Virus record (IMG/VR): IMGVR_UViG_3300050505_000421
Coordinates: 1 to 26,578 of that record
Reading direction: 5' to 3' (one strand)
From: a virus
Length of the DNA stretch: 26,578 nt
The notes beneath the pieces were generated by a model. The model ran no database searches, was not told where the DNA came from, and saw nothing but the letters and a program-made list of their open reading frames with translations. The position numbers and the translations under genes were made by a program. Below, one piece after another: positions 1,029 through 25,195 of the stretch (position 1 is its first letter; each line of letters begins with the position of its first letter).

Positions 1029-1041
1029 CCTTTCGGTTGGT
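1029..1041 (-). promoter_or_regulatory. Gene-boundary motif variant ACCAACCGAAAGG
   Basis: Variant of the 13-bp repeat, just upstream of a start codon. Confidence 0.55.
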
Positions 1042-1052
1042 GGCTGTATCGT

Positions 1053-1490
1053 TCAGCGGATCTTGTGGCAGAGGCAGCGGTCCTGCTCGCAGTTCTCGCA
1101 GGCCTTGTCCTTCACTTCCTCTTCCACTTCGTCTTCGTCTTCCGGTGAGTAATGGGCGTACGCGTCGTCTCGTTCAGCCTGGTGTTCGGCATCGACGTCA
1201 TCATCTACGTGGTAGTCGTAGTCGTCATACATGTAGTCTTCGACCCAAGGATCGAACTCCCGCGCCTCGCGTCGGGGAAACAGCAAGTCCCAAGCCGTGG
1301 TCAAGGCGTCGAGGGACACGTCGCTGCTCGGCTTGTTGGCGAACGCCCAAAGCCACGCCTCGTCCTCAGACTTCCCGAGGAGCTCAAGGTAGATGGCCAA
1401 GCGCAAGACCTTCTTCACGTCGGCGGGGGCGAGGCTCCAGTCCGCAAGCGCGACGGTGAGAAGGTCGTTCAGTTCTTTGCGGTCGAGCAT
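1053..1490 (-). CDS. Hypothetical protein with acidic tail and terminal Cys cluster
   Basis: ORF track; RBS GAGGA; D/E-rich C-half; CENC-x4-CLC. Confidence 0.85.
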   Translation of the reverse strand: MLDRKELNDLLTVALADWSLAPADVKKVLRLAIYLELLGKSEDEAWLWAFANKPSSDVSLDALTTAWDLLFPRREAREFDPWVEDYMYDDYDYHVDDDVDAEHQAERDDAYAHYSPEDEDEVEEEVKDKACENCEQDRCLCHKIR

Positions 1491-1511
1491 TAGTCCTCGT
1501 TGAGATGGGCA

Positions 1512-1793
1512 CTAGGAACAGTCAGTGCCAAACTCTAACTCCATCTTCGACGGCAACTCAAACTCTTCCGTACACTCGAGACAGATCAAGCGCACGTCGC
1601 GTGAGTCTGTGTCGTAAACGTCGAAGTTCTCAGCATCACTTACGATGAGCACCTTTCCAATAAAGCCGATTACGGCTCGGTTTGCGGTTACCTCTTCGAG
1701 GTAGTTGATGCGTTCCGTGTCCGCGTTCTTGCACGCGGGACACACTGGTTTTGTGTCATCGGCGCTAGCGCGGCGGGGTGGGTTGGTGATCAC
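1512..1793 (-). CDS. Zinc-ribbon hypothetical protein
   Basis: GTG start overlaps the radC stop (GTGA); CPAC...CLEC. Confidence 0.75.
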   Translation of the reverse strand: MITNPPRRASADDTKPVCPACKNADTERINYLEEVTANRAVIGFIGKVLIVSDAENFDVYDTDSRDVRLICLECTEEFELPSKMELEFGTDCS

Positions 1794-2236
1794 AGGCGCT
1801 CCGTCAGACCCGCGTCGTAGAAACTGAAGTGCGCCCCGTCCGCACCGATGATCACGTGATCGAGCAGATCGACACCGAGAAGCGAGCACGCCTCGCTCAG
1901 TCGCTTCGTGAGCATTCGGTCTTCCGCGCTCGGCTGCACGTCTCCGCTTGGATGGTTGTGCGCAACCACCAGCGCCTTGCTGGCACACAGGAAGGCGGTG
2001 CCTAGGAGATCGGTCGGCCTGACCGGCACACTGGTCACCTGGCCATCCGTGCGAACGTAGCCAATCGGGCGCAGTCTGCCATCCAAGTAGATGGCGATGA
2101 ACGACTCCCGCGTGTTGTTCTCAAGGAGAGGGCGAAGCATCGCGGCTACGTCCGCCGACGTGGTCAGCGGCTTGCGCCCGTCGAACTTCAGGTTCGCACC
2201 CTTAACGTAGCGAACCTCCATCTCACGGCATTCCAT
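1790..2236 (-). CDS. radC: RadC-family JAB/MPN domain protein (stand-alone, no HhH)
   Basis: RESFIAIYLD, AHNHPSGDVQPSAED and LLDHVIIG are the RadC signature motifs. Confidence 0.93.
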   Translation of the reverse strand: MECREMEVRYVKGANLKFDGRKPLTTSADVAAMLRPLLENNTRESFIAIYLDGRLRPIGYVRTDGQVTSVPVRPTDLLGTAFLCASKALVVAHNHPSGDVQPSAEDRMLTKRLSEACSLLGVDLLDHVIIGADGAHFSFYDAGLTERL

Positions 2237-2238
2237 GG

Positions 2239-2697
2239 TTACACCTGTCCCGTGTTGACGTAGCCGCAACCGCACTCCACATCGTGCACGCGGCGAGCCT
2301 CGTCATCGTCTCCGAACTTCTTGCAGTTGTCACAACGCTGGATCTCGAAGGCGTCGTGCCCATCCGCGAAGGCATGGTCCCAACCTGTTACAAGCAGCCA
2401 TGCCGCGTCACACCCGCAGTTCTTGCCGCGAACTTCCGCCTTCCAATCCCGGTAGGTGAGCATTGCGTTTTGGTTCCCGTCACCGACAAGAACCTCACAG
2501 CGAGGGCAGTACACGTCATCACCATAGTCTGGTCCTACCGGAATGTTGTCGTTCACCCCGACCCACCACAGGACTTGGATCTCCGGCGAGCCGCAACGTC
2601 CGCACACGTACAACATGTCGTTGGGTGGTTGCGGCATCGGCTGCACTTGGCTTCGCCACTCCGCGATCGTTCGCATCGCAAGCTTCGTGTTACTCAT
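2239..2697 (-). CDS. Multi-CxxC zinc-binding hypothetical protein
   Basis: CGRC, CPRC, CGC, CDNC, CGC. Confidence 0.8.
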   Translation of the reverse strand: MSNTKLAMRTIAEWRSQVQPMPQPPNDMLYVCGRCGSPEIQVLWWVGVNDNIPVGPDYGDDVYCPRCEVLVGDGNQNAMLTYRDWKAEVRGKNCGCDAAWLLVTGWDHAFADGHDAFEIQRCDNCKKFGDDDEARRVHDVECGCGYVNTGQV

Positions 2698-2966
2698 CCC
2701 TTACCTCCCAGCCTTCGCTCGACTTCGTTTCGAAGATGGACCGCAAACTGTGCCAGTGTCGGGGCGTGCTGTCTGTCCCGCGGTTCCAAAGCTGACGCGG
2801 CTGCGGCCAAGTAACTCGCCATGATCTGTGCCTCCGCTACTGCCTTCGCGCAGTCGCGTTCCGCACGCAGCGCCTCCAGGCGTGCGCGTTCCGCACGCAG
2901 CGCCTCCAGGCGTGCGCGTTCCGCACGCAGCGCCTCCAGGCGTGCGCGTGTCACGTCGTCTCCCAT
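2694..2966 (-). CDS. Hypothetical protein with 3x RARLEALRAE repeat
   Basis: ATG at 2966 after AAGGAGAAAAG; stop overlaps the next ATG. Confidence 0.8.
   Translation of the reverse strand: MGDDVTRARLEALRAERARLEALRAERARLEALRAERDCAKAVAEAQIMASYLAAAASALEPRDRQHAPTLAQFAVHLRNEVERRLGGKG
2855..2949. repeat. Perfect 30-bp tandem repeat, 3 copies plus 5 bp
   Basis: CGCGTTCCGCACGCAGCGCCTCCAGGCGTG x3. Confidence 0.95.
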
Positions 2967-2973
2967 CTTTTCT

Positions 2974-2986
2974 CCTTGTGCTTGGT
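2974..2986 (-). promoter_or_regulatory. Gene-boundary motif ACCAAGCACAAGG
   Basis: Consensus copy between a stop (2989) and an ATG (2966). Confidence 0.8.
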
Positions 2987-2988
2987 GG

Positions 2989-3171
2989 CTACGGCTTGCG
3001 CTTGGCGTCGACGTAGGCCTTGAAGATCTGATAATTGCGGATGTCCTGCGGTGCGCAGGTCTGGATAGCCTGCCACTCAAGGCGCCGGAGCTCTCGCTCG
3101 AGCTTGATCACTTCGACTGGTACAGGTGGCGAACGGCGCTTGAAGTCGTCGTTGGTCAACGTGATGTCCAT
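2989..3171 (-). CDS. Hypothetical protein (60 aa)
   Basis: ORF track, start trimmed to ATG 3171. Confidence 0.7.
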   Translation of the reverse strand: MDITLTNDDFKRRSPPVPVEVIKLERELRRLEWQAIQTCAPQDIRNYQIFKAYVDAKRKP

Positions 3172-3196
3172 GATAACACACTGGTCCTGTGAGCAG

Positions 3197-3209
3197 ACCA
3201 AACACAGGG
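3197..3209 (+). promoter_or_regulatory. Gene-boundary motif ACCAAACACAGGG, antisense to local genes
   Basis: Intergenic, followed by AAGAAG. Confidence 0.65.
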
Positions 3210-3219
3210 AAGAAGCGAT

Positions 3220-3305
3220 AGCCCGGCACCGCCCAGGCGCCCGACGACTACGCAGGCAGAATTACCTGCGGCGAAGTTTCCCCGAACTCTAGGCGGTGCC
3301 GGGCT
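3220..3305 (-). ncRNA. Candidate structured RNA: 17-bp closing stem around 2-3 internal hairpins
   Basis: Minus strand AGCCCGGCACCGCCTAG pairs with CTGGGCGGTGCCGGGCT. Inner stem CGCAGGTA/TGCCTGCG. The mismatches are G-U wobbles only on the minus strand. Confidence 0.55.
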
Positions 3306-3309
3306 GATT

Positions 3310-3585
3310 TCAGTTCCCTCCCATACTCTCACCGGTGATCGCCTTGAACAGCGTGCACACAGCGGAGTAGGTCTCTACCTTCATGGTGGTGTACGCATAC
3401 ACGAAGACCACACGCTTGCGGCGTTCCTGCTCTGCAGGATTGGAGGCACGGGCACGCCACTTGAACAGCGCGCTGTCGAGCACAGCACGGTAGTCCAACT
3501 CATAGTCCGAGCCTGTGGACATCTGGGCTAGGCTGCGCACTTCGAGCAGTGCGAAGTCCGGGTCGTCGTCGAATGGCTTCTTCAC
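3310..3585 (-). CDS. Hypothetical protein
   Basis: GTG 3585 after GGGAGG, overlapping the upstream stop. Confidence 0.75.
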   Translation of the reverse strand: MKKPFDDDPDFALLEVRSLAQMSTGSDYELDYRAVLDSALFKWRARASNPAEQERRKRVVFVYAYTTMKVETYSAVCTLFKAITGESMGGN

Positions 3586-4205
3586 CGACGGTCCTCCCAC
3601 GCCTTCTCGAGCAGCGGCCACAGCTTCTCGTCCACGTGTCCCTTCATGCCGTCGAGGTCATCGCCGATGAAGCCGTAGCAGGAGTCCTCGACCTCCCAAT
3701 GGATGAAGTCTTCGGAGCAGGTGGTACCCTTCTCGATCACGTATCCCCAACAGTTCCCCTGGATGAATTCGTCGTACGTTTCGACCTCCTGCTTGAGGTA
3801 CTTCCGGATCTCGGCGCGGTGCCCGTCGGTGATCGGCTCGTCCGGTTTCAAGCCGAGGCCTTCTCGCATCTTCTCCGGCGTGGCAACGATCCAGCCGACC
3901 TGCCCGGAATCCCAGCGCCCCGGGTCGCAGTCGTCGAACGACGACGTCCGCATCGAGATGCCGCTGTGGTCGATGAGCCAGAGGTCCAGCACGACGCTGC
4001 CCTCCGGTACGTTCTCCTCGAACCAAGCCTGCGGGTCGCGCTTCGGCTGCACGTCGCCGAGGTTATAGTTGCGATGCCAACACGCCATCAGGCCGGTGTT
4101 GCTCCATTCGCGCGGGCTATCTGCGTACTCATCGCGCACAACGCGAATCCGCACCTGCTCCTTGGCTTCCGGCTTCTTCGTTCGCTTCGTCTGGGTCGAT
4201 GGCAT
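3582..4205 (-). CDS. Conserved phage/plasmid hypothetical protein (DHSG...WDSGQVG type)
   Basis: Motifs SPREW, DHSGISM, WDSGQVGW, EVETYD..G..WGY and DSCYGF recalled from mobile-element hypothetical proteins; not database-checked. Confidence 0.85.
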   Translation of the reverse strand: MPSTQTKRTKKPEAKEQVRIRVVRDEYADSPREWSNTGLMACWHRNYNLGDVQPKRDPQAWFEENVPEGSVVLDLWLIDHSGISMRTSSFDDCDPGRWDSGQVGWIVATPEKMREGLGLKPDEPITDGHRAEIRKYLKQEVETYDEFIQGNCWGYVIEKGTTCSEDFIHWEVEDSCYGFIGDDLDGMKGHVDEKLWPLLEKAWEDRR

Positions 4206-4224
4206 TTGTCTTTCATCCTTCCAC

Positions 4225-4611
4225 CTACTCGAAAGTTTGGCTGTCGGCGAATTCGGCGAGTACCTTCACGAAGGTCGGTAAAACAAAACACAGAGCAAGC
4301 CACATGTTTGGGCCCGTGCGCTTGTGACCGCGTGCTCCACCGAGGTGTTCCGGCCATTCTTCGACGCGGTACAAGACCGCCTCGCCGTTGGGTGTACCCA
4401 TGTCGTGGTAGGCACACACGTACACGGAGCGGTTCGAGGACGGACGGCGTGCGTGGAAGGACACTTCCCCCCACACAGCAACACCACCGGCGTTGAAGTG
4501 TACTGGCGATACTTCAAAGCCGATCGCCTTAAGGCCGCGAGACAAGGAGTTCAGTACACGGCGTGCACGGTGCTCCCACAGTTTCTTGGCCCCACCGGCA
4601 GGGGCAGTCAC
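4225..4611 (-). CDS. Hypothetical protein (NAGGVAVWGEVSFH motif)
   Basis: ORF track. Resembles an NxxG.AVSGEVTLH-type mobile-element family (recalled, unverified). Confidence 0.75.
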   Translation of the reverse strand: MTAPAGGAKKLWEHRARRVLNSLSRGLKAIGFEVSPVHFNAGGVAVWGEVSFHARRPSSNRSVYVCAYHDMGTPNGEAVLYRVEEWPEHLGGARGHKRTGPNMWLALCFVLPTFVKVLAEFADSQTFE

Positions 4612-4847
4612 TTGGTCTTCCCCGCCGGCTGGCGCGCCTTCTCCATCTGCGCCGTGATGCGTGCACGCTCCCGCTTCGCGGAGAGACTGCCAAGTCGAGC
4701 GAGCCGCTCCTTCAGAGAGAGCGCGCCGTACACGGCGCTACGGTCGGCTGCTTCGGCGCGACGCTTCGCCTTCGCCTGGCGGGCGATCCCCTTCGGACCA
4801 CGGTTGACCCGCCCGTGGGCGTTGACCGGCTTCGTGTTCCTGCTCAT
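4608..4847 (-). CDS. Small, highly basic hypothetical protein
   Basis: ATG 4847 after the boundary motif/RBS; K/R-rich. Confidence 0.8.
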   Translation of the reverse strand: MSRNTKPVNAHGRVNRGPKGIARQAKAKRRAEAADRSAVYGALSLKERLARLGSLSAKRERARITAQMEKARQPAGKTK

Positions 4848-4860
4848 GGTGTTCTTTCTT

Positions 4861-4873
4861 CCTTGTGTTTGGT
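4861..4873 (-). promoter_or_regulatory. Gene-boundary motif ACCAAACACAAGG
   Basis: 6 nt downstream of the tRNA-Gln CCA. Confidence 0.8.
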
Positions 4874-4879
4874 TTGAAC

Positions 4880-4953
4880 TGGTTCCGGGAGGAGGATTCA
4901 AACCTCCGTCATCGCATCCAAAGTGCGAGGTCCTGTCGCTAAACGATCCCGGA
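4880..4953 (-). tRNA. tRNA-Gln(UUG) with encoded CCA
   Basis: Acceptor TCCGGGA/TCCCGGA; D stem GTTT/GGAC; anticodon arm TCGCA-CTTTGGA-TGCGA; T arm GGAGG-TTTGAAT-CCTCC; ACCA end. Confidence 0.92.
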
Positions 4954-4964
4954 TCAGGGTTCTA

Positions 4965-5414
4965 CTACTCATCCAACCATACGAGTGCGTGTGTGCGCCA
5001 GAATTCTACCGAGATAACCGTAGCCAGATGACTCCATGGCTCGGGCGGTGCGGTCTTGCCGACGTAGGCCGTGCTCAAGACGAAGACTTCCGTCATCGTC
5101 TTGTTCCGCTTGAGCACGACCGTGACGAAGCGCGTCGGCTCCGGCTTGCGGTTGTGCACGAAGCGCGTGGGGCCCTTCCGGCCCGTACGCTTGTGGAAGA
5201 AGACGTCATCCGCTTCCGTCGTTGCGACGCACTGTGACGCACCGACTACGCGGTCGAACTCGATCTCCCGTACGATGATGTCGTCCTCGGGTTGCGCGAC
5301 CACCTCGGACAGCGCCTTGTCGAGCAAGGGCAAGACAGCGGCGTGGTCCTGTACGTGCGAGTGACCGGGGCGGTCGACCACGAGATGGCCGCTGCCGAGG
5401 CGCCACATTCGCAT
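4965..5414 (-). CDS. Conserved hypothetical protein (R..R.G.TRFV.NRKPEP...PEPW...FW..HALVW type)
   Basis: ATG 5414 after GGGAGG with TGATG coupling; motif pattern recalled from phage hypotheticals. Confidence 0.85.
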   Translation of the reverse strand: MRMWRLGSGHLVVDRPGHSHVQDHAAVLPLLDKALSEVVAQPEDDIIVREIEFDRVVGASQCVATTEADDVFFHKRTGRKGPTRFVHNRKPEPTRFVTVVLKRNKTMTEVFVLSTAYVGKTAPPEPWSHLATVISVEFWRTHALVWLDE

Positions 5415-5632
5415 CAGAAATCCTCCCACTCAATTGTGATCCGTTCACAGCCCTCAAGCAGTTCGATCAGCCCTTCCACGTCCTTGAACTGGCGCCGGAA
5501 CTGCTCGGCGATGCGTGGGTGTTGATTCGCGGTCTCGATCGCTTCCTTGTACGACAGGCGCGCGCAGTCGAGCGCCCCTGCAAGTGCGGTGTGTTCGGGT
5601 CCGCTAAGCGCGCGTGTCATTCTCTTCGGCAT
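5414..5632 (-). CDS. Hypothetical protein
   Basis: ORF track trimmed to ATG 5632; RBS AAGGGG. Confidence 0.75.
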   Translation of the reverse strand: MPKRMTRALSGPEHTALAGALDCARLSYKEAIETANQHPRIAEQFRRQFKDVEGLIELLEGCERITIEWEDF

Positions 5633-5634
5633 GT

Positions 5635-6099
5635 TCACTTCCCCTTCTTCTCTTGGGCCTTGTGTAGACCCGCCAACAGATCCCGTGTGATGCCCTCGTA
5701 CGCCCCGCGGTCCTTGATCAGGGCACGTTGTGCCTGCGTTCGCGACCACTTCAGTTCGGCTCGCACGACTTCGCAGGTCTGGAGCGTTTCCCCGTCTTCC
5801 AGGGCAGCAAGGCCGGCGAAATACAGCCAGTCTACGATTAGATCCCAGATCACGTCCGGTTCGGGGACGGGCCGGTTCTCGTCGAAGCTGAGCGCCGGTG
5901 CTATTGCGGCGACAGGTGGTGCGGGCGCAGGTGTGCGCTTCGCTCGGAACTCGACGCGCACGCCGTAGTAAGCAGCACGCGCGGCATCGTCGGCGTGCGG
6001 GTCCTCTTCCGGTTGCGGCTGTGGCGTCGCGGCGGGTGAGGTGGTTGAGTTGTACTTGAAGTGTCTGTCGCCGAGGAAGCTCTCGTCGAAGATGGTCAT
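5635..6099 (-). CDS. Hypothetical protein with Pro/Ala-rich linkers
   Basis: ATG 6099 overlaps the upstream stop. Confidence 0.8.
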   Translation of the reverse strand: MTIFDESFLGDRHFKYNSTTSPAATPQPQPEEDPHADDAARAAYYGVRVEFRAKRTPAPAPPVAAIAPALSFDENRPVPEPDVIWDLIVDWLYFAGLAALEDGETLQTCEVVRAELKWSRTQAQRALIKDRGAYEGITRDLLAGLHKAQEKKGK

Positions 6100-6275
6100 C
6101 CGCCCACCCTCTTCATCTCGCACACGTCGATCGTGTTCAGGCTGTGCCGCTCTTCCATCTTCCGCATGTCGGCGACGTGGTGCTCACACGCGTTGCGTGT
6201 TACGAGTACCTTGCCTCTCCGAGAGATCAGGATGATTTTCGTCGCGGGCAAGTAGCACGGGCCCCATTCACACAT
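6096..6275 (-). CDS. Small Cys/His hypothetical protein
   Basis: ATG 6275 after GGAG; CEWGPC...CEHH. Confidence 0.7.
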   Translation of the reverse strand: MCEWGPCYLPATKIILISRRGKVLVTRNACEHHVADMRKMEERHSLNTIDVCEMKRVGG

Positions 6276-6279
6276 GGCG

Positions 6280-6900
6280 TTACTCTCCATAGAGGTACTC
6301 CTTGAAATTGCCGCGCACGTTCTTACCGCGCGTTGTGATCTGTGTCGCGCCATTCGCGGCACGCTTGAGGTAGCCTCGCTGGGCCAACGATTCGATGTGT
6401 GCTTCACTTCCGCCGTTGCGCCCTGTCAGTCTCCAGTGAACGAGATCCACCCTGGCGAGGAACTCCTGGCGGTACGGGCCGGACTTCAAGCAGGCAAAGG
6501 CGTACAGCACGGCCTGCTCGTCTTCGGTCAGCGCTTCAGGCGGCGGTGGCAGGAGCGGCGCGAAGTCCTCAGGCCGCACGTACAGCACAGCGAACACCTT
6601 GTCTCCGTCCGAACCCTTGAGCACCATCACCCCGCGCGGGATCGGATACAGTTCGTCGTCGAGGTCGACGGCGTTGTTCGCGTTGAAGATGTTCGCGCCT
6701 CCCCACGATCCCCACTTGGTCTTGGCTTCGCCGGTACGGAGCTCGACCGCGCAGAAGAAACCGCGGCGGCCCTTCTCTCCTGCTTCCATCGGAGAGATGG
6801 TGTCCTTGGCTACGACTTGGATGTCCGGCTTGCGGTAGCCGAGGCCGCGCAAGGCGTTCTGCACAGGCTGCGGGAGGTCGGCAGTCGGGAGGTAGGGCAT
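6280..6900 (-). CDS. Hypothetical protein (possible C-terminal winged-helix-like segment)
   Basis: ORF track; the ending 'SLAQRGYLKR...TQITTRGK' resembles a wHTH wing (inference). Confidence 0.85.
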   Translation of the reverse strand: MPYLPTADLPQPVQNALRGLGYRKPDIQVVAKDTISPMEAGEKGRRGFFCAVELRTGEAKTKWGSWGGANIFNANNAVDLDDELYPIPRGVMVLKGSDGDKVFAVLYVRPEDFAPLLPPPPEALTEDEQAVLYAFACLKSGPYRQEFLARVDLVHWRLTGRNGGSEAHIESLAQRGYLKRAANGATQITTRGKNVRGNFKEYLYGE

Positions 6901-6912
6901 TGAAGTCTTCCT

Positions 6913-6925
6913 CTTTGTGCTTGGT
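6913..6925 (-). promoter_or_regulatory. Gene-boundary motif ACCAAGCACAAAG
   Basis: Fills the intergenic gap 6901-6930. Confidence 0.75.
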
Positions 6926-10421: not shown

Positions 10422-10433
10422 TGGGCTCTTCTT

Positions 10434-10446
10434 CCTTGTGCTTGGA
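10434..10446 (-). promoter_or_regulatory. Gene-boundary motif TCCAAGCACAAGG
   Basis: 2 nt downstream of the tRNA-Leu CCA. Confidence 0.8.
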
Positions 10447-11126: not shown

Positions 11127-11139
11127 CCTTCTGTTTGGA
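11127..11139 (-). promoter_or_regulatory. Gene-boundary motif variant TCCAAACAGAAGG
   Basis: Intergenic, 11 nt upstream of an ATG. Confidence 0.6.
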
Positions 11140-13541: not shown

Positions 13542-13554
13542 CGTGTTCCTTCTT

Positions 13555-13567
13555 CCTTGTGTTTGGT
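13555..13567 (-). promoter_or_regulatory. Gene-boundary motif ACCAAACACAAGG
   Basis: 2 nt after the upstream stop. Confidence 0.8.
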
Positions 13568-14623: not shown

Positions 14624-14633
14624 TTCTTTTCTC

Positions 14634-14646
14634 CCTTGTGCTTGGT
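14634..14646 (-). promoter_or_regulatory. Gene-boundary motif ACCAAGCACAAGG
   Basis: Consensus copy, 10 nt upstream of an ATG. Confidence 0.8.
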
Positions 14647-15269: not shown

Positions 15270-15278
15270 GTTCTTTCT

Positions 15279-15291
15279 CCCTGTGGTTGGT
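15279..15291 (-). promoter_or_regulatory. Gene-boundary motif variant ACCAACCACAGGG
   Basis: 9 nt upstream of an ATG. Confidence 0.7.
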
Positions 15292-16838: not shown

Positions 16839-16851
16839 TCTTGTGCTTGGA
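16839..16851 (-). promoter_or_regulatory. Gene-boundary motif variant TCCAAGCACAAGA
   Basis: 29 nt upstream of an ATG that has its own separate RBS. Confidence 0.65.
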
Positions 16852-17206: not shown

Positions 17207-17250
17207 GGTCTGTGTCTCCCGTTTGGGTTGCCGTCCGATGCAGAAAGACA

Positions 17251-17346: not shown

Positions 17347-17355
17347 TGTGGATAA
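17347..17355 (-). promoter_or_regulatory. Perfect DnaA box (TTATCCACA)
   Basis: TGTGGATAA on the plus strand; single copy. Confidence 0.45.
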
Positions 17356-17725: not shown

Positions 17726-17738
17726 CCCAAGCACAGGG
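17726..17738 (+). promoter_or_regulatory. Gene-boundary motif variant CCCAAGCACAGGG inside the control region
   Basis: No substantial ORF follows it. Confidence 0.55.
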
Positions 17739-17939
17739 AAAGTGTGTAGCAAGGACTAGACACGAACGATTCTCAGCGCTTACACGCGGAGGGATGCAGT
17801 GCGTTAGGGGGTTATGTCTAATTAGTTCGGGGATTTAGTTGATGGGGGGTGTAAAAGGGGTGGATTACCAACTGGAACGATCGTCGAGGTCCTATCCTGA
17901 GGCTCGATCAAATTCGGAAACGAACATGTGAGCCTCCCC

Positions 17940-17968
17940 TTGTCCAGGTCAAACATTGTGATTAGACT
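17940..17968 (+). promoter_or_regulatory. Sigma70-type promoter candidate for the right arm
   Basis: TTGTCC-17 bp-TAGACT, followed by GGAGGAG and ATG 17988. Confidence 0.6.
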
Positions 17969-17987
17969 CCGGCCTGGAGGAGTCCGC

Positions 17988-18857
17988 ATGTCCTACATGC
18001 ACATCGACAGCCTGTACAAGAACCAGACGATCCTGATGTTCCGCGAGTGCTTTGCACTGGAGAAGGTGCACGGGACGTCGGCACACGTCCGTTGGGCGGA
18101 CGGCCAGCTGCACTACAGCCCGGGCGGCGCGCCAATCGACAAGTTCCGCAAGGCATTCGATCACGAGGAACTCGAGGCAAAGTTCCGCGAACTCGGCTAC
18201 CCTACGGTCGTCGTCTATGGTGAGGCGTACGGGGGTTCCTGCCAAAGGATGATGGACACCTACGGGCCGACGCTGCGGTTCATCGCGTTCGAGGTGCTGG
18301 TGGGTGACCGCTGGCTCTCCGTGCCGGACATGGATCAGGTCGCGACGGGCCTGGGACTCGCGGTGGTGCCCTATCGGAGGGTGTCCACGAACTTGGAGGC
18401 GCTGGACTTCGAGCTTGACCGCCCGTCGGAGGTCGCTGTGCGGCGCGGCTGCGGTGAGGACCACCCGCGGGAGGGCGTGGTGCTGCGCCCCCTGATTGAA
18501 CTCAGAACGAACAACGATCAGCGCGTCATCGCGAAGCACAAAGGGGAGAAGTTCTCGGAGCGGGCAACCACGCCAAAGGTCGCGGATGCCGAAAAGCTCG
18601 CTGTACTGGCTGGCGCTGACGCGATCGCGCAGGAGTGGGTAACGCCAATGCGCCTCGAACACGTGCTGCAGAAGATCCCCGGCGCGAACATCGAGCACAC
18701 CGGGCAGGTCATCAAGGCGATGGTCGAAGACGTCTACCGCGAGGCGAAGAACGAGATCGTGGAGTCCAAGGAGGCCAGCGCCGCGATCGGGCGCAGGACG
18801 GCGATCCTGTTCAAGGAAAGGTTGAAGGCCGTCCTGAGAGAGCGGTCCACCTCCTGA
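17988..18857 (+). CDS. rnl2: ATP-dependent RNA ligase, T4 Rnl2 family
   Basis: Motifs I EKVHGT, III YGEAYG, IIIa FIAFEV, IV EGVVLRP and V IAKHK..F.E, plus an Rnl2-type C-domain (WVTPMRLEHVLQKI...MVEDVYRE); RBS GGAGGAG. Confidence 0.92.
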   Translation: MSYMHIDSLYKNQTILMFRECFALEKVHGTSAHVRWADGQLHYSPGGAPIDKFRKAFDHEELEAKFRELGYPTVVVYGEAYGGSCQRMMDTYGPTLRFIAFEVLVGDRWLSVPDMDQVATGLGLAVVPYRRVSTNLEALDFELDRPSEVAVRRGCGEDHPREGVVLRPLIELRTNNDQRVIAKHKGEKFSERATTPKVADAEKLAVLAGADAIAQEWVTPMRLEHVLQKIPGANIEHTGQVIKAMVEDVYREAKNEIVESKEASAAIGRRTAILFKERLKAVLRERSTS

Positions 18858-19118
18858 TCTACCGGAAGGGCGACGGGTTCTACGGGGGAGCTGCTGCCGC
18901 GCCCATTCAGCACCTGCCACGGTTCCTCCGTGACGACTTCCTGATCTTGGCGATGCGGCTACTGGCGAGAGCCCCCGTGCGTACGCACGGCCGTCGGCGG
19001 TTCCTTCGCTGAGGTCATCGGCAAGAGGGCTTGCGATCCCGGCGTGTTGAGAAGGCGCGGCCCTGGTTCGTGCTTGCCCCCCCCCCCTCAAATTCCGCAT
19101 CCCTCGTTCGATCACATC

Positions 19119-19146
19119 TTGACTCACCACGAATACGAGTTAGGGT
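19119..19146 (+). promoter_or_regulatory. Sigma70-type promoter candidate
   Basis: TTGACT-16 bp-TAGGGT upstream of the 19229 gene. Confidence 0.45.
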
Positions 19147-19228
19147 GGTTGCTGGGAGCGGTGCTGTAGAACAACTTGGTCAGGGTGGGTCGCACGCGAA
19201 ACCGTTCGACCAACAGGGAGGTTTGAAG

Positions 19229-19849
19229 ATGCCGACTGGGTACACGGCAATGATCGAGGACGGGGCTACCTTCGCTCAGTTCCTGTGGGGATGCGCGCAC
19301 GCGTTCGGGGCGAATGGCCTGCTGCGAGACGATGGGATCGACGCGCCCATCCCGGAGTACAAGCCGTCCGAGTACGAGAAGAAGCAACTCGATTCGGCCC
19401 TCCGACGACTGCGCAAACTGGGGAAGATGAGTCTCACCCAGGCAGCGCTGCTTTGTCAGGCGGAGTTCGACCAGCAGGTGAAGCGCAATGAGGAGACCCG
19501 CCTCCGCTACGCGCAGGAACGGGCGCAGTACGAGGCGATGCGCGTGCAGGTCGAGGCCTGGGATCCTCCGACGCCGGACCACGCAGGCTTGAAGGCGTTC
19601 ATGCTGGAGCAGATCAAGATCTCGCTGCCGCCGACAGAGAAGGATCTAGAGCGCTGGTACCCGCCCCCCGTGCTTCAGGATCCAGCGAGGTGGCTGGCGG
19701 AGCAACTGGCACACGCGATGGAATGCGTGACGCGCGCGAGCAAGGCTTGGGATGAGGAATTGAAGCGCACCAAGGAACGGAACGCCTGGAACGCAGCGCT
19801 GGCCAAGCGCGTCCCGCCGCCGGAGATCCCGCTGCCCAAGAAGCGCTAG
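19229..19849 (+). CDS. Conserved phage hypothetical protein (MPTGYT...F..F...CA.AFGA type), helical
   Basis: ATG 19229 after GGGAGG; N-terminal motif recalled from phage hypotheticals. Confidence 0.88.
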   Translation: MPTGYTAMIEDGATFAQFLWGCAHAFGANGLLRDDGIDAPIPEYKPSEYEKKQLDSALRRLRKLGKMSLTQAALLCQAEFDQQVKRNEETRLRYAQERAQYEAMRVQVEAWDPPTPDHAGLKAFMLEQIKISLPPTEKDLERWYPPPVLQDPARWLAEQLAHAMECVTRASKAWDEELKRTKERNAWNAALAKRVPPPEIPLPKKR

Positions 19850-19862
19850 AGGTTGCGTCTCA

Positions 19863-19875
19863 ACCAAGCACAAGG
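19863..19875 (+). promoter_or_regulatory. Gene-boundary motif ACCAAGCACAAGG
   Basis: Consensus copy, 6 nt upstream of an ATG. Confidence 0.8.
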
Positions 19876-19881
19876 AGGAAA

Positions 19882-20151
19882 ATGCTGAGTGTCTTCAAGT
19901 ACCCCGTGAACCTTGTAGACGAGTTCTCGCTGGAACTGCCCATCGGGGCCAGGATCCTTCACGTCGAAAGCCAGGCAGGAACCAACTGCCTTTGGGCCCT
20001 CGTCGACCCCAAAGCCCCGAAGGAGCTCCGGCACTTCCGCCTGGCCGGGACAGGGCACCCGATCGACGACTACGCGATCGGGGACCACATCGCCACCTGG
20101 CAGGACGGGCCTTACGTCTGGCACCTCTTCGAGGCGGGGGGAACGCGATGA
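19882..20151 (+). CDS. Conserved phage hypothetical protein (KYP...LWALVD...GTGH...VWHLFE; DUF7352-like)
   Basis: Motif pattern recalled; family number unverified. Confidence 0.85.
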   Translation: MLSVFKYPVNLVDEFSLELPIGARILHVESQAGTNCLWALVDPKAPKELRHFRLAGTGHPIDDYAIGDHIATWQDGPYVWHLFEAGGTR

Positions 20152-20459
20152 CTAGCCGAGAGGTGTTCGACGCCGTCGCCGCCGGCACGATGACTGCCGA
20201 GGAGGGGGCTGGTATCCTTACGGTTCCTTCCAAGGGAGCGAGGATCGCCAGTGGCGTGTTGGTCCTGACGCTGGCCTTCCTGGCAGCCTACGCCGTGGGC
20301 ATGGCCCTCTGCACAGGCGCCGCAAGGTGGTGGTACTCCGCCGGCATACCCCTCATGTTTCTCACGACCGAGTTGATTGTGTGGCGGTCTCGCAAGGCGT
20401 TCCGCCGCGAGACCGAGGCCAGACTACAAGCACTTCGGGACAAGGCGGGGTTGAAATGA
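20148..20459 (+). CDS. Two-TM membrane protein
   Basis: ATG 20148 coupled to the upstream stop; two hydrophobic segments. Confidence 0.8.
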   Translation: MTSREVFDAVAAGTMTAEEGAGILTVPSKGARIASGVLVLTLAFLAAYAVGMALCTGAARWWYSAGIPLMFLTTELIVWRSRKAFRRETEARLQALRDKAGLK

Positions 20460-20758
20460 AGCTCGTCTTCGTAGGGGACCAAGTAGGTGTCGCCTCCCCC
20501 GAGCGCAGGGAGATGACGGTCGACTGTATTGAGGTCGGGTACACGGTTGACGGCGCGGTTGGGTCAGCCAAGTTCACGGTCAAGGGCACCGTCGAAGTAC
20601 CCGGCGTGGTTGACAACAGATCCGGTGTCTACCGATTCCCGGTGGGCGCACACGGGGGAAACCTCGAGGAGGCTCTGATGCGCCTGCACCGCGGTGTGTT
20701 CCTGCTCGGGCCGGACTCCCCCGTCGCCGCCCCGGGCTTCTACAGGCTCATCGGCTGA
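20456..20758 (+). CDS. Hypothetical protein
   Basis: ATG 20456, ATGA-coupled. Confidence 0.8.
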   Translation: MKLVFVGDQVGVASPERREMTVDCIEVGYTVDGAVGSAKFTVKGTVEVPGVVDNRSGVYRFPVGAHGGNLEEALMRLHRGVFLLGPDSPVAAPGFYRLIG

Positions 20759-20770
20759 TACACACTTCTT

Positions 20771-20783
20771 CCTTGTGCTTGGG
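20771..20783 (-). promoter_or_regulatory. Gene-boundary motif CCCAAGCACAAGG, antisense to local genes
   Basis: Sits in the 35-bp gap between two plus-strand genes. Confidence 0.75.
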
Positions 20784-20793
20784 GAATACGTAG

Positions 20794-21381
20794 ATGATTT
20801 GGTTCACATCTGACACGCACTTTGGGCACGCCGGCGTGATCAAGCACGCCAAGCGCCCCTTCGCGGATGTCCAAGAGATGGACGCAGCCATGGTCGATCG
20901 CTGGAATGCGGTCGTCCAGTCACAGGACACCATCTATCATCTCGGGGACTTCTCCTTCTACCGCACCCGGAACGATAACGAGGCCCTCCTCCGTCGACTG
21001 CACGGGCAGAAGCACCTCGTCTACGGGAACCACGACCACGATCAGACCCGCAAGGCCAAGGGTTGGGCGTCGGTCGCGCCTTACCGAGAAATCAAAGTGG
21101 AACTGTCCGAGATATTGAATGGCTTCACCGGGCCCTATCAGCAGCACATCGTCCTGTTCCATTATCGGATGGTCGTGTGGAACGCAGCGCACTACGGCGC
21201 TTGGGCCCTGCACGGCCACTCTCACGGCACGCTCCCAGTGACCCTGACCGCGAAGACGTTTGACGTTGGCGTGGACTGCTGGGAGTACACCCCGATCTCG
21301 CTCGAGACGGTCGCGCGTGAAATGGCGAAGCGAAGCTTTGTGTCGGTTGATCACCACGGTCGTAGTAGGGAGGAGGCCTGA
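20794..21381 (+). CDS. Calcineurin-like metallophosphoesterase
   Basis: SDTHFGH, LGDF, GNHD, HGHSH and DVGVD metal-binding motifs. Confidence 0.93.
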   Translation: MIWFTSDTHFGHAGVIKHAKRPFADVQEMDAAMVDRWNAVVQSQDTIYHLGDFSFYRTRNDNEALLRRLHGQKHLVYGNHDHDQTRKAKGWASVAPYREIKVELSEILNGFTGPYQQHIVLFHYRMVVWNAAHYGAWALHGHSHGTLPVTLTAKTFDVGVDCWEYTPISLETVAREMAKRSFVSVDHHGRSREEA

Positions 21382-21382
21382 G

Positions 21383-21931
21383 ATGGCGGTCCGTGTGAGA
21401 ATGAACGGGCAGATGGTCTGCGCAGCGCAGAGCGACGCCGAAGCTGGGGACGTCTACATCGACGACGCCGTCCACCACCTGCTGCACACCGACTTGAAGA
21501 TCATTGGCACGGATGACGAGGGCGACACCTGGCGAGTCGCTTCGTCCTTGCGCCCGTGCCGGTGCTGCTCGGAAGAGAAGCCGGCCACCGCGCCTGCCGA
21601 TTCCGTCCGGGCCAACGGCTACTCTGACGACGCCGCGTACATCACAGGTGTGGAGGACCCCGAGGACGCTGTTCCGGGGACACCGTACCAACTGCTGATC
21701 GACGACGTCGTGGTTGGAACGATCGCGGTGGAGTTTGGCAGGGCCTGCGAGAATGAGTGGACGACAATCCTCCGTCCCGTTGTGGGCCACACTATCCGCG
21801 TGGGCAAGCGCACTGCGGCTCGTCCTCAGCCCTGTGCGGCGTGGGTGGCTCCAACGCCTGAGACTGTTGTTCCGGGTGATGCACCCGGCGACTGTGGCAG
21901 TTGCGGATGGTCGCAGGGCGCACATGAATAA
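21383..21931 (+). CDS. Hypothetical protein (MAVRVR...CAA...GDVYIDD N-terminal module)
   Basis: ATG 21383 after GGAGG. Confidence 0.8.
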   Translation: MAVRVRMNGQMVCAAQSDAEAGDVYIDDAVHHLLHTDLKIIGTDDEGDTWRVASSLRPCRCCSEEKPATAPADSVRANGYSDDAAYITGVEDPEDAVPGTPYQLLIDDVVVGTIAVEFGRACENEWTTILRPVVGHTIRVGKRTAARPQPCAAWVAPTPETVVPGDAPGDCGSCGWSQGAHE

Positions 21932-22181
21932 AGACGAAGGACACTTCGGCCCTCTGTGCCGGTTCGATCGTGACACGCTTGATTTCGTGCTCGGTTACGA
22001 GGCGGGTATGTTGTTTGTGCGCCTCGACCGGAAGCGGAAGAAGTGGTCAGGTGTGTACCACACAGAGAACCGTACAATGCTCGAGCGCACGGCCCTCTGC
22101 TGCGGCTACAGCGTAGAGATCGAGGAGAGCGGGGACCCCGCCTGGGTCTTCGCAACGTTTACACTGTACGGTCGCAATTAA
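21924..22181 (+). CDS. Hypothetical protein
   Basis: ATG 21924; ORF track trimmed. Confidence 0.75.
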   Translation: MNKDEGHFGPLCRFDRDTLDFVLGYEAGMLFVRLDRKRKKWSGVYHTENRTMLERTALCCGYSVEIEESGDPAWVFATFTLYGRN

Positions 22182-22196
22182 CGGAGGAGGTCTAGA

Positions 22197-22988
22197 ATGC
22201 TCCCAGTAGTTAGCCGCGTGGTGGATCTGACACCGTCTTGGTGGGTCGAGGCCGTGAATCAACAGGACAACGCGCGTGTAGGAGCAGCACTTCTTTACCT
22301 CATCACCGCCGCCGGCCGCCACGTTGCTTGGCTTGGGCGTGTGGAGTTTCACGCGGAGGCGCTGTACGTGGAGGTCGACGACAGTGAGTCTTTCACACCA
22401 GAACGCGAGATTCAGGTCCTTTGGAAAGCGCTCGACGTGATAGGGTCTGCGAGCACCAAACACATGGGTGAAGAGAAGAAGGTCGAGTTTGGTGGCGGTG
22501 CTCCGAACACGGAAACAGCCGCCAACTTCAGCAAGGAGGAACTTACGGCAGGGCAGGCGGAACTCAACATGTACGTACGACGAGCGCTGGCAGAACGCTT
22601 CGCGCTCGTGCGAGACGCGGTAAACGGAGGCTGGCTTCTAGCCCTAGACACACCATACGGGCCCAAGTTCTCTCTTGATATGCTTCAGAAAAGCGGCGTC
22701 GCGGTTCGAAACTGGGCAACGCCCGAGGCCGCTAAGGCGGGTGCGTACCAACTAGCCGCCAACCCCGAGGTGGTTGCGGTTGTCAGGAAGATCGATGCGG
22801 CGGCGCACGACGCGCGGCTGAAAGTTGATTACCAGCGTCGGAACGCGCTGGACGCACTCGGCTTCCTCTGCGAGGAGTGGGACAACGCCGACGGCGACCA
22901 ACGGAAGGTTCTGCGAGACTTCGTCGAGTTCCACATTCGGGAATTGACTGGCGCACACACAGAAGGGAGGAGCCGTGACGGCAAGTAA
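22197..22988 (+). CDS. Hypothetical protein
   Basis: ORF track; RBS GGAGGAGG. Confidence 0.85.
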   Translation: MLPVVSRVVDLTPSWWVEAVNQQDNARVGAALLYLITAAGRHVAWLGRVEFHAEALYVEVDDSESFTPEREIQVLWKALDVIGSASTKHMGEEKKVEFGGGAPNTETAANFSKEELTAGQAELNMYVRRALAERFALVRDAVNGGWLLALDTPYGPKFSLDMLQKSGVAVRNWATPEAAKAGAYQLAANPEVVAVVRKIDAAAHDARLKVDYQRRNALDALGFLCEEWDNADGDQRKVLRDFVEFHIRELTGAHTEGRSRDGK

Positions 22989-23232: not shown

Positions 23233-23444
23233 ACTACCAAGTCGCAGGCTACGTAGTTCGGAAGCAGGACGGTTGGCTCGGCTTTGGCAATAAACGTCAC
23301 GCCGACCTCTGCGAAGCCTTGGTATTTGCCGTCCGCGAGGAAGCAGAGAGGGCGTGCAGTGCGCCCGAGGATCAAGTCAAGGCGTTCCGCAGCCTGTCTG
23401 GTTCTTTTCATCCACGCACAACGTGTGGGTTCGGAGGAGAATGA
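23229..23444 (+). CDS. Hypothetical protein
   Basis: ATG 23229 after AAGGA, ATGA-coupled. Confidence 0.7.
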   Translation: MNYQVAGYVVRKQDGWLGFGNKRHADLCEALVFAVREEAERACSAPEDQVKAFRSLSGSFHPRTTCGFGGE

Positions 23445-23728
23445 GCGAAGCCACGAAGAAGCGCCCGAGTCGTGAGGCGCTGGCCGCCGCGAGTTGCATC
23501 ATCGCCGCCGGCGCCGACAGCGTTCCGGGAGACGGAAGTTTGGCGGATCAACTGGCAACGGTGTTGTGGAAGCTCGCTGAGAAGATCGACGCAGTTGCCG
23601 AACAGCGGTATGGGCCCCTGCCTCGGTGCGGCCTGCACGTCACCCGTTTGAACGACAGCAACGACGACTGCGGTGGCCCCTGCACGCTCGAGGCCGGGCA
23701 TCTTCAAAACTGCGACGATCTGGCATGA
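23441..23728 (+). CDS. Hypothetical protein with C-terminal C..C.L..GH motif
   Basis: ATG 23441 after GGAGGAG. Confidence 0.75.
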   Translation: MSEATKKRPSREALAAASCIIAAGADSVPGDGSLADQLATVLWKLAEKIDAVAEQRYGPLPRCGLHVTRLNDSNDDCGGPCTLEAGHLQNCDDLA

Positions 23729-24138
23729 AGATGGACGCCGGCACAGTCGTCCGCGTCGAGCCCCTTCTCGCCGATCAACCGAACGGCCCGGCCATGGCGG
23801 GCCTGGATGCGTTCGAGATCCGAAACGTGCCCTTCGAGATGAAGATCTACGCAGGCCCTGATCCCGTCGTGGGAGCGTACGTCCTGCGCGTGGTTCTCCA
23901 CGTAGCCGATCGAGACGACGCGCACAGGACCGGCGTACTGAGCACGGACTACATCCCCTGGAGCGAGTCTGACACGCAGCACCTCCAGGGAGACAAAGTC
24001 GCCGAACGCCTCCACGCGTTGGTCAGGCAGGCCATCTGCCACGAGCTCGACGAGAACACTTACTTCGAGGGACAACGGCGCTGGGATCCTCATCCGGAGG
24101 GCCAGCGCCAATTCTACAGTGAGGAGGAGCCACGATGA
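23725..24138 (+). CDS. Hypothetical protein (HELDE...DPH C-terminal motif)
   Basis: ATG 23725, ATGA-coupled. Confidence 0.8.
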   Translation: MKMDAGTVVRVEPLLADQPNGPAMAGLDAFEIRNVPFEMKIYAGPDPVVGAYVLRVVLHVADRDDAHRTGVLSTDYIPWSESDTQHLQGDKVAERLHALVRQAICHELDENTYFEGQRRWDPHPEGQRQFYSEEEPR

Positions 24139-24144
24139 CTTCTT

Positions 24145-24157
24145 CCTTGTGTTTGGT
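24145..24157 (-). promoter_or_regulatory. Gene-boundary motif ACCAAACACAAGG, antisense to local genes
   Basis: Starts 6 nt after the stop at 24138. Confidence 0.75.
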
Positions 24158-24196
24158 GGCTGGGTCGGGTGAAGAAAGGGACGCGTGTCATTGAAG

Positions 24197-24562
24197 ATGA
24201 AGAACAAGAAGGCGAAGCGTCCGCTGATCGCGTTGGCGAAGCGGATTCACGAGTACGGTTTCACAGCCAGTCTCGGGAGGATTGAAGGCCCCTGTTGTTT
24301 CATTGGGCACGGACGGCAAGTGCGCAACAAGAGGCTTGCACATTGCGCGGCGGGAAACCACCAAGAGCACGATATTTGGTGTTTGGAGAATCCAAGTTGG
24401 GTGTTTGAGTCGCCCCTGACCACCATCTTGCGGGATGGGCCGCAGCCCACTGAAGCCATCGGTCCTTTGGGCGTATACGAAGAGATCAATCTTCGGCGTG
24501 TGCGGAAGGAACAGGCGATCATGCTCTGTCTCTTTGCCGACGTTGCCGAGAACGACCTGTAA
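24197..24562 (+). CDS. Hypothetical protein
   Basis: ORF track; start either GTG 24185 or ATG 24197. Confidence 0.7.
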   Translation: MKNKKAKRPLIALAKRIHEYGFTASLGRIEGPCCFIGHGRQVRNKRLAHCAAGNHQEHDIWCLENPSWVFESPLTTILRDGPQPTEAIGPLGVYEEINLRRVRKEQAIMLCLFADVAENDL

Positions 24563-24573
24563 AAGGAACACAC

Positions 24574-24690
24574 ATGAAGCGTAAGCGACAGGCTTGGAAG
24601 CGCGATCACAAGGGCCGGTGGCAGTGGCGCAAGTGCGCCGGCGCCGGTCCGTTCACGACCAAGAAGAACGGAAGGAAGGCACCGCGATGA
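24574..24690 (+). CDS. Small basic peptide (38 aa)
   Basis: Manually translated MKRKRQAWKRDHKGRWQWRKC...; RBS AAGGA; stop overlaps the next ATG. Confidence 0.65.
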   Translation: MKRKRQAWKRDHKGRWQWRKCAGAGPFTTKKNGRKAPR

Positions 24691-24974
24691 GAGAGAAGAT
24701 CGTCAAGGCGCTCCGGCACGCGTATGCGCGCGGAGCTCGGGTGGGCTCGGTGCTCGAGGTCACACAGCGCCTGGCTGGGCGGAACCACGTCGACATCGCG
24801 GATCAGGAGGCCTTCGAGGCTTGGGTCAAGGCGAACGACGTCACGAAGCTCGCCACGGAGGTCCTGCGCAAGCAGACCCTCCGTCAGGTCCTTCGCTGCT
24901 ACAAGGACCTGCCGACCAAGAACCGCAACCGCTTCGTGAAGATGTTCCAGGCCCAAGCAATGGAGAAGGCGTGA
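24687..24974 (+). CDS. Hypothetical protein
   Basis: ATG 24687 after GAAGG. Confidence 0.8.
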   Translation: MREKIVKALRHAYARGARVGSVLEVTQRLAGRNHVDIADQEAFEAWVKANDVTKLATEVLRKQTLRQVLRCYKDLPTKNRNRFVKMFQAQAMEKA

Positions 24975-25195
24975 TGACAGCTTCCAAGTGGCGTGTGTTC
25001 ATCGGCGCGCAATTCCTGGGCGGCGCGGTTGGCTCCCTGGTGCAGGACGCCTTCGGCCTTGAGCGCTGGGTCGCGCTCGTGCGCGCGAACTGGATCCCCG
25101 CGATCTACAGCGTGCCTCTGGCCGCGTTCGTGGGCATCGTCGGGCTCTTCTTTGTCCTCGTCTCCCCCGAGACCAAGCACAAGGAGGAAAAGTGA
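24974..25195 (+). CDS. Small two-TM membrane protein
   Basis: TGATG coupling; two hydrophobic segments and a charged tail. Confidence 0.75.
   Translation: MTASKWRVFIGAQFLGGAVGSLVQDAFGLERWVALVRANWIPAIYSVPLAAFVGIVGLFFVLVSPETKHKEEK
25172..25184 (+). promoter_or_regulatory. Gene-boundary motif ACCAAGCACAAGG
   Basis: Overlaps the end of the previous CDS, 7 nt upstream of GTG 25192. Confidence 0.8.

Follow-up and report, generated by a model that had tools for sequence, protein, structure and literature searches.

The DNA studied here is a window of 26,578 nucleotides, bases 1 to 26578 of IMG/VR virus record IMGVR_UViG_3300050505_000421 (a 137,073-bp virus contig with a G+C content of 61%, hereafter G000), and its subject is a short asymmetric word that recurs at gene junctions throughout that contig. 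The window consists of two divergent arms of small, mostly unknown genes arranged around a non-coding region at about 17.2 to 17.9 kb. G000 is an uncultured, myovirus-like soil phage that encodes a portal, an HK97-type capsid, a T4-like tube and baseplate, a terminase and a class II ribonucleotide reductase, along with helicases, a ParB-like protein and an RNA ligase, and all seven public runs that contain its DNA (7/7) are rhizosphere metagenomes; no RNA run with the phage was listed publicly. Since both contig ends sit in the same low-complexity repeat, G000 is probably near complete, with a CheckV completeness of 84%. Since its capsid relatives in GTDB genomes are mostly Myxococcota, the host is likely myxobacterial. 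Among cultured phages we found no close relative, the best matches being 33% for the capsid and 29% for the baseplate, and tRNA was the sole match in an Rfam search. Genes were called with a codon-model script of our own, with which some starts may be off, and the Pfam scans covered 196 G000 proteins, leaving out four genes that span locus boundaries and very short open reading frames (ORFs).

The word was first described in an earlier note on this DNA as a 13-bp asymmetric motif with 16 copies. Each of these positions and strands (16/16) was found again among the 21 rows that match HCCAAVCACAAGG in the window at no more than 2 mismatches, where 3.6 would be expected, and exact matches numbered 9 against an expectation of 0.01, a count that none of 100 shuffles reached. 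A partial copy reported at 25419 was located at 25414-25426. While the asymmetry stood, the length did not, as the word extends over about 18-19 bp and reads [C/T/G]CAA[A/G/C]CACAAGGAAGAAG in a matrix built from 36 near-perfect copies; its edges are sharp, with no flanking conservation within 30 nt on either side. Eleven copies said to lie near starts (1029, 2974, 4861, 6913, 10434, 11127, 13555, 14634, 15279, 19863 and 25172) do end 6-13 nt ahead of a same-strand start, and the distance to the start is 29 nt for 16839 and 249 nt for 17726. The sites of the window are given below, "sense" and "antisense" referring to the adjoining genes and RBS standing for ribosome-binding site.

1022..1040, minus strand: sense site, overlaps the RBS region of ORF 748-1023; score 21.4
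2967..2985, minus strand: sense site, abuts the ATG of ORF 2694-2966, 3 nt behind the upstream stop
3198..3216, plus strand: antisense site at a distance of 26 nt upstream of minus-strand ORF 2989-3171, for which a separate RBS is present
4854..4872, minus strand: sense site between the 3' end of tRNA-Gln (4880-4953) and ORF 4608-4847
6906..6924, minus strand: sense site before ORF 6280-6900
10427..10445, minus strand: sense site between the 3' end of tRNA-Leu (10449-10539) and ORF 10161-10421
11127..11139, minus strand: degenerate sense site (5' core only) before ORF 10864-11115, below the matrix listing cut-off
13548..13566, minus strand: sense site before ORF 13239-13541
14627..14645, minus strand: sense site before ORF 14399-14623; a conserved hairpin (14651-14726) immediately precedes the site
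15272..15290, minus strand: sense site before ORF 14736-15269 (trypsin-like peptidase)
16839..16851, minus strand: degenerate sense site (5' core only), 29 nt before ORF 16555-16809
17727..17745, plus strand: weaker site with a score of 15.2, located in the non-coding control region between the divergent arms, some 250 nt ahead of the RNA ligase gene
19864..19882, plus strand: sense site, RBS-improved variant, before ORF 19882-20151
20764..20782, minus strand: antisense site lying between the stop of ORF 20456-20758, 5 nt away, and the start of the metallophosphoesterase gene, 11 nt away
22456..22474, plus strand: in-gene site with a score of 21.2, within ORF 22197-22988; absent from the earlier note
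24138..24156, minus strand: antisense site, overlaps the stop codon of ORF 23725-24138
25173..25191, plus strand: sense site in the last codons of ORF 24974-25195, before the GTG of ORF 25192-25440
25414..25426, plus strand: partial sense site (3' part only) before ORF 25437-25673

Scanning G000 as a whole with the matrix revealed 50 strong copies, 14 of which lie in the window, compared to one strong copy in each of three fourth-order Markov control genomes. The majority (41/50) lie mostly in non-coding DNA, in a genome whose non-coding share is 11.5%, and the information content of the word is 29 bits, compared to the 12.4 needed for 50 sites in the phage and the 18.6 needed in a 10-Mb host. 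The 48 loci are spaced more evenly than random, with a coefficient of variation (CV) of 0.67 (P 0.0008 against uniform placement; P 0.0012 against random gene junctions). Gene interiors had been thought free of clear copies, but in-gene copies are present at 22456 in the window and at 112691, 119411 and 123109. Exact-pattern scans of IMG/VR (52 stretches) and of metagenomes (112 stretches, about half of the collection) returned single, chance-like matches with no homology to G000. We did not find this dispersed-word arrangement in print, only the analogues cited below, and the main text of a myxophage survey preprint (10.64898/2026.09.14.751636) makes no mention of motif, intergenic or ParB.

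We set sense and antisense labels by hand for 45 of the 54 sites with a score of at least 12, the other 9 being in-gene or ambiguous. Genome-wide, the junction copies comprise 24 sense and 21 antisense sites (binomial P 0.77), and the copies at 3197, 20771 and 24145 are antisense to their genes, which does not support the claim that the motif flips with transcription. The structural region at 47-83 kb holds 12 sites, mostly antisense. Most sense copies (n=24) end 0-6 nt ahead of a start codon and supply its Shine-Dalgarno (SD) sequence, while most antisense copies (n=21) begin 0-13 nt from the upstream stop, with a distinct RBS after them. The median junction gap is about 50 nt with a site and 4 nt without one. 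Since a stop codon directly precedes many of the sense copies as well, both classes occupy the smallest intergenic slot. Conservation differs between them: 18 of 21 antisense copies are perfect over 16 positions compared to 9 of 24 sense copies, and mismatches in the purine half amount to 5/168 and 25/192, respectively (P 0.0005), the sense-copy deviations being mostly A>G (18/33), towards GGAGG. Since antisense copies are unable to act as an RBS and yet conserve the purine half better, this half has a role besides the RBS. Six inverted doublets, head-to-head and tail-to-tail with variable spacing, fold as hairpins.

A close relative, IMGVR_UViG_3300025318_000025 (37 kb; hereafter G011), was reached via the ParB protein. 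It is syntenic with 71.5-113 kb of G000, with protein identity mostly at 60-74% and fourfold third-position identity at 36% (896/2501), near saturation. G011 carries nine copies of the word with the core CAARCACARGG and a tail that is shifted relative to G000 in all nine (9/9), mostly GTRGAAG where G000 has AAGAAG. In the shared region, 7 of 11 strong G000 sites are kept in the same place and orientation, and the four without a counterpart are the 82772/82796 doublet, 91802, whose gene is absent from G011 too, and 101722, where the tRNA cluster is absent. At the in-gene copy in the SNF2 gene, the residues track each genome's consensus (PNTGIKV in G000, TNTGVEV in G011), and in G000 this stretch contains rare codons, among them ATA at 3%. 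In the DNA polymerase gene, five fourfold third positions are kept at a weak antisense copy, for which chance gives about 0.006 by our own arithmetic at the 36% rate; these include two CTT codons, and CTT is kept in 8 of 63 other conserved leucines. Since in-gene and single copies persist in G011, selection acts on the nucleotides themselves, also away from starts and stops, and on single sites rather than doublets. Scanning for the G011 variant of the word yielded G011 itself and five singletons.

Dispersed words also occur in more distant relatives. A first screen took ten larger contigs whose capsid identity is 42-50%, selected when none of their repeats were yet known; a high-copy word was present in four (G001, G005, G006 and G007), and the remaining six had at most 3-4 copies or tRNA words only. 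G001 has an asymmetric word with 18 matches in both orientations and one doublet; G006 and G007 have palindromes of 22-24 bp at 15 and 13 loci, respectively; and G005 has a promoter-like word 27 nt ahead of early genes. At G005 647-6290 and 17162-22777 (L349-L350), about 20 copies of a 45-nt promoter/operator-like unit lie at this fixed 27-nt offset. Two further genomes, G017 and G018, were added since a screen of shorter loci showed repeats, and were not chosen blind. G017 (L488-L492) has an 18-20-bp palindrome in 23 copies that are evenly distributed across 89 kb (spacing CV 0.45), with the TTG-N14-CAA geometry that the G006 and G007 palindromes also have, and no ParB or integrase was found in its record, which is 83% complete. 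In 13 of the 23 copies, a G-type half is joined to a T-type half with which it cannot pair; these mixed halves break an RNA hairpin and fit the half-sites of a DNA-binding dimer. G018 has three copies of an asymmetric word in both orientations, while G020 and G021 have no such word. The junction behind the 76705 homolog carries a site in G000, G011, G001, G006 and G017 but none in G007.

Copy number, length, spacing, occurrence in both orientations, in-gene copies and positional conservation with a concerted consensus shift in G011 come directly from the analysis. As judged from sequence comparison, we consider it probable that the word forms an orientation-tolerant operator network of about 50 DNA sites, likely read by one phage protein, with a predicted genome-wide hold on transcription. 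Roughly two thirds of that confidence goes to repression or timing and about one third to a structural or partition role. The reader would be a single phage-encoded, monomeric, multi-domain protein that recognizes an 18-bp asymmetric site, and the network would act as operators or roadblocks on the early, replication and structural modules. Sites appear to have been fitted into the smallest intergenic slot available: in the sense orientation, the purine half would double as the SD sequence of the next gene and drift to GGAGG, while in the antisense orientation, the site would be tucked behind a stop codon and stay perfect. Where inverted copies meet, folding into hairpins would be a by-product. 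More tentatively, the output may be repression similar to that by P1 C1 or at stoperators, rather than genome organization. The earlier note had proposed an element-wide regulatory code; its repressor-array form is the best supported, but orientation tied to transcription, CsrA control and a crossover sequence are not.

The closest known systems in operation are probably, by analogy, the P1 C1 operators and the Cluster A stoperators. According to PMC8546580, P1 has 22 dispersed 17-bp asymmetric C1 operators in a genome of roughly 100 kb, and these adjoin the promoters they repress. The G000 sites are similar in their asymmetry, length, many copies and wide dispersal, the one repressor being P1's, and the P1 prophage is a plasmid, while G000 has ParB and lacks an integrase. 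On the other hand, G000 has about 50 sites with no sequence similarity to those of P1, its sites are not tied to detectable promoters, about half of them double as RBSs, and no C1-like gene or C1 family match was found in the Pfam and PHROG scans. Stoperators are bound by the immunity repressor and block elongation. In PMC6550527, PMC9283540 and PMC13313380, those of Cluster A are described as 13-14 bp long, present in 20-30 copies and oriented with transcription. Like the G000 word, they are asymmetric, genome-wide and located in short intergenic spaces or gene termini, and their consensus diverges between related phages; their reader is monomeric and has at least two DNA-binding domains (PMC9283540 describes two that act on an asymmetric site), as is predicted for G000. 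With 18 bp, about 50 copies, a 24:21 orientation and no recognizable Rep, the G000 word differs, and on orientation it is not a stoperator.

Two actinophage repeats resemble the word in other respects. Cluster K start-associated sequences (SAS), as described in PMC3203893, are nearly all in one orientation and belong to non-structural genes only. They share with the G000 word its asymmetry, an SD core a few nt ahead of starts and conserved positions unable to pair with 16S rRNA, but closeness to a start together with the SD core applies to the sense class and not to the antisense and in-gene copies. Since nearly half of the G000 copies are antisense, the structural region is covered and in-gene copies exist, the word is not an SAS on orientation and distribution. 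The nearest unexplained case is Cluster O, for which PMC4351075 reports 34 dispersed 17-bp palindromic repeats of unknown function, predicted to be protein binding sites. These are also inter- and intragenic without an orientation rule, in a phage without an integrase. However, they are palindromic, as in G006, G007 and G017, while the G000 word is asymmetric and overlaps RBSs.

Several observations weigh against an operator network. The left early arm departs from the overall balance with 10 sense copies and 1 antisense, and all four tRNA loci (4/4) have a sense copy 1-27 nt downstream; our model accounts for neither. There is no excess of -10-like hexamers near the sites (6-12 of 50 sites compared to 36 of 207 junctions), so that the sites are probably not classical promoter operators. 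A search of 14500-18100 for the sigma-70 consensus found none, although these scans do not cover host promoter types. Reversed L5 stoperators lose function according to PMC9283540, whereas the G000 sites sit both ways. In G011, the weak in-gene copy at 94633 (score 11.8) was not kept. Across the distant relatives, shared junctions number 9 against about 5 expected in our hand count, which is not significant and is suggestive only, and since the palindromic words share no sequence with the G000 word, they count as analogy only. Co-occurrence ties no protein to the sites, and the gene of the candidate binder described below is whole in G000 only among 16 records, of which G011, G001 and G018 are themselves incomplete genomes. 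Signs of a temperate phage are also lacking, with no tyrosine integrase and no ParA-type AAA_31 in G000.

Other readings of the same sites were weighed against the operator network. At the RNA level, sense leaders and antisense copies could pair in cis or trans and either mask ribosome sites or form RNase III-type stems, which we regard as unlikely but far from negligible. The two classes are perfectly complementary on mRNA, the six inverted doublets give strong hairpins (66721 pairs with a degenerate neighbour), the sense copies behind the tRNA loci would fit, and classes alternate on the right arm slightly more than by chance (18 runs compared to 13.7 expected, z about 1.8, by hand count); the phage also has an RNA ligase gene. 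G:U pairing would tolerate the A>G deviations of sense copies, but the same change improves the SD sequence as well. Partners do not covary, whether a sense copy is paired with the next antisense copy (P 0.62, 11 pairs) or the members of a doublet with each other (P 0.59, 6 pairs). Furthermore, of the two doublets in the region shared with G011, 82772/82796 has no counterpart there and only one copy remains of 101703/101722, whereas single sites persist. Antisense copies are almost lacking from the left early arm, conservation of in-gene copies extends to places well away from starts and stops, and the G017 palindromes contain hairpin-breaking variants. An improbable alternative is that the sites are loading points of the ParB/KorB-like CTPase encoded at G000 104776-105642, which would serve to organize phage DNA, protect it or segregate it. 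A ParB with an N-domain and a helix-turn-helix (HTH) is encoded in both G000 and G011, a site lies just behind its stop in each, and the even spacing of sites is in keeping with such a role, as are the evenly spread palindromes of G017, which we take to resemble parS or Noc sites. However, ParB dimers read palindromes and parS is palindromic, whereas the G000 site is asymmetric, and a search for other repeated palindromes in G000 (7-bp arms) found none apart from one tandem repeat. Five site carriers also lack ParB (PF02195 was not found in G001, G005, G006 and G007, and the ParB profile had no match in G017), while PF02195 is present in the non-carriers G008, G009 and G010. The four cultured phages with the nearest ParBs have 3-5 repeated words in the 46-50 kb read of each, and there is no ParA in G000.

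The word might instead be a signature of recombination or insertion by which gene cassettes or invertible segments are marked off. In its favour, sites widen junctions (the median gap of about 50 nt against 4 nt), gene groups are enclosed by inverted pairs, G011 homology stops at two sites (94986 and 101703), and a gene with its site (91514-91820) is missing from G011. We consider it quite improbable, since several other G000/G011 breakpoints have no site and about a quarter of junctions carry one anyway, contigs of the phage from seven runs reveal neither inversions nor deletions at sites (although contigs drop rare variants), the 21-23-nt contig joints are other copies of the word, and sites within essential genes are kept. 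A crossover sequence for shuffling cassettes, as the earlier note had suggested, also found no backing in a tyrosine recombinase, a resolvase over the cut-off or rearranged contigs. Translational control by host CsrA, or merely a favoured RBS context, is very improbable as an explanation of the word as a whole. CsrA/RsmA binds ANGGA on mRNA, preferably in a hairpin loop; ANGGA lies over the SD sequence in 23 of 24 sense copies, and CsrA is encoded in 3 of 5 candidate host-type genomes. However, ANGGA is found in 0 of 21 antisense copies and, by eye, in 2 of 9 G011 copies, the antisense copies that lack it are better conserved, and no conserved hairpin presents GGA. CsrA could still add a secondary layer on sense copies. 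As for RBS context, the 16S tail pairs with AAGGA only, the tails are standard in 4 of the 5 host-type genomes, and the word is absent from 4 of the 5, with one 1-mismatch match in the fifth, in agreement with the earlier statement that the CCAAVCAC half is not explained by anti-SD pairing. It is likewise very doubtful that the word is a promoter that drives sense and antisense transcripts via a phage polymerase or sigma-like factor. Its high information content (29 bits) and a sigma-region-4 HTH gene common to G000, G005, G006, G007, G011 and G017 would suit this, but the scanned proteins include no RNA polymerase, the sigma-4 helix is nearly the same across genomes whose words all differ, the distance to starts ranges from 0 to more than 200 nt, and there is no bipartite flanking signal. 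Finally, a clade of probable myxobacterial myoviruses might keep a lineage-specific barcode of evenly spaced, near-invariant sites in partly the same slots while swapping word and reader (a palindrome with a dimer, or an asymmetric word with a fused triple-Xis monomer), so that the sites would mark phage DNA as self rather than repress promoters. This would serve protection, compaction or exclusion of co-infecting relatives, and the use of sense copies as RBSs and of inverted pairs as hairpins would be a co-option; we consider it rather unlikely.

For an operator network, our leading candidate binder, at perhaps a one-in-three chance, is a 233-aa protein encoded at G000 42471-43172 that is predicted to have a triple Xis/MerR-type winged-helix fold. 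Pfam finds HTH_17 in it twice, and the structural model (mean pLDDT 82.6) has three beta-helix-helix-beta-beta-helix modules, which individually match RdfS and Pukovnik Xis (Foldseek probability 1.00, with weak E values of 0.05-0.2). The doublet 43175/43224 lies directly 3' of the gene, and its operon opens behind site 41392. PMC5859096 states that Xis-type domains bind head-to-tail on direct repeats, and since they do so, a fused trimer would suit an asymmetric site; the word itself has a loose 6-nt repeat, and the three modules may read it head-to-tail. The triple winged-helix family is small, with three full-length homologs only. In the nearest of them, P0133 (58-60%), the helices of modules 1-2 are better kept than that of module 3. 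Module 3 is where P0133 diverges most, which would parallel the shifted tail of the G011 word if P0133 belonged to the G011 lineage.

A LuxR-type HTH protein encoded at G000 41426-41638 is a further candidate. Four other proteins were considered and rejected. Against the sigma-4 HTH protein as a specificity factor, its helix hardly varies between phages whose words differ; a Fis-type HTH_8 gene occurs in G005, G006 and G007 but not in G000; a Zn-ribbon/HTH protein of G005, G006, G007 and G017 has no match in G000, G001 or G011; and UvrD co-occurs with site carriers but is also present in G020, which has no such word.

Dispersed operator networks are already known in P1 and actinophages, with an identified protein in only two. 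The G000 site is longer, twice as numerous and indifferent to orientation, and shares bases with RBSs, and a small, concrete candidate protein can be offered for testing. Since related phages have the same layout with unrelated words, some of them palindromic, they may provide a natural series on how a reader and dozens of sites change specificity jointly. For SAS-like words, the better-kept antisense purine half shows a possible function besides translation initiation.

Additional features of G000 lie apart from the word. The paralogous genes at window positions 1-584 and 7497-8135 have SAAW/SAAR low-complexity tails that are 90% identical over 155 nt, and the same repeat occurs at G000 136990-137073, so that the contig begins and ends within it; since the repeat lies there, the assembly was probably broken at these ends. 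The ribonucleotide reductase (48187-51306), PD-(D/E)XK exonuclease (109963-112221) and terminase (124896-127529) genes each have intein or LAGLIDADG matches, and the prohead protease (54153-55730) carries a fused 2H phosphoesterase domain of the 2'-5' RNA ligase family. The tRNA-Ile at 101742-101892 has an AAT anticodon, unusual for bacteria, and adjoins an unassignable tRNA-like gene. Located 3' of parB is a frame that encodes a Zn-binding and sigma-4 HTH protein (G000 104351-104790, L056:18351-18790, minus strand; G011 29765-30260). In both genomes, it has no ATG, GTG or TTG ahead of the conserved WRPR..C block and remains open far into parB, making a non-AUG start or a frameshift fusion with ParB possible. 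A stretch of about 80 nt is present in two copies on opposite strands, just 5' of gene starts, at window 23340-23440 and G000 ~119760-119840. A second repeated element, at window 10550-10625 and 14651-14726 on the minus strand, has 16 bases that are identical in both copies and, after them, a long hairpin in which three pairs show compensatory changes from one copy to the other. One copy lies before tRNA-Leu and the other before site 14627, and the element is possibly a terminator, a processing stem or a promoter-linked leader.

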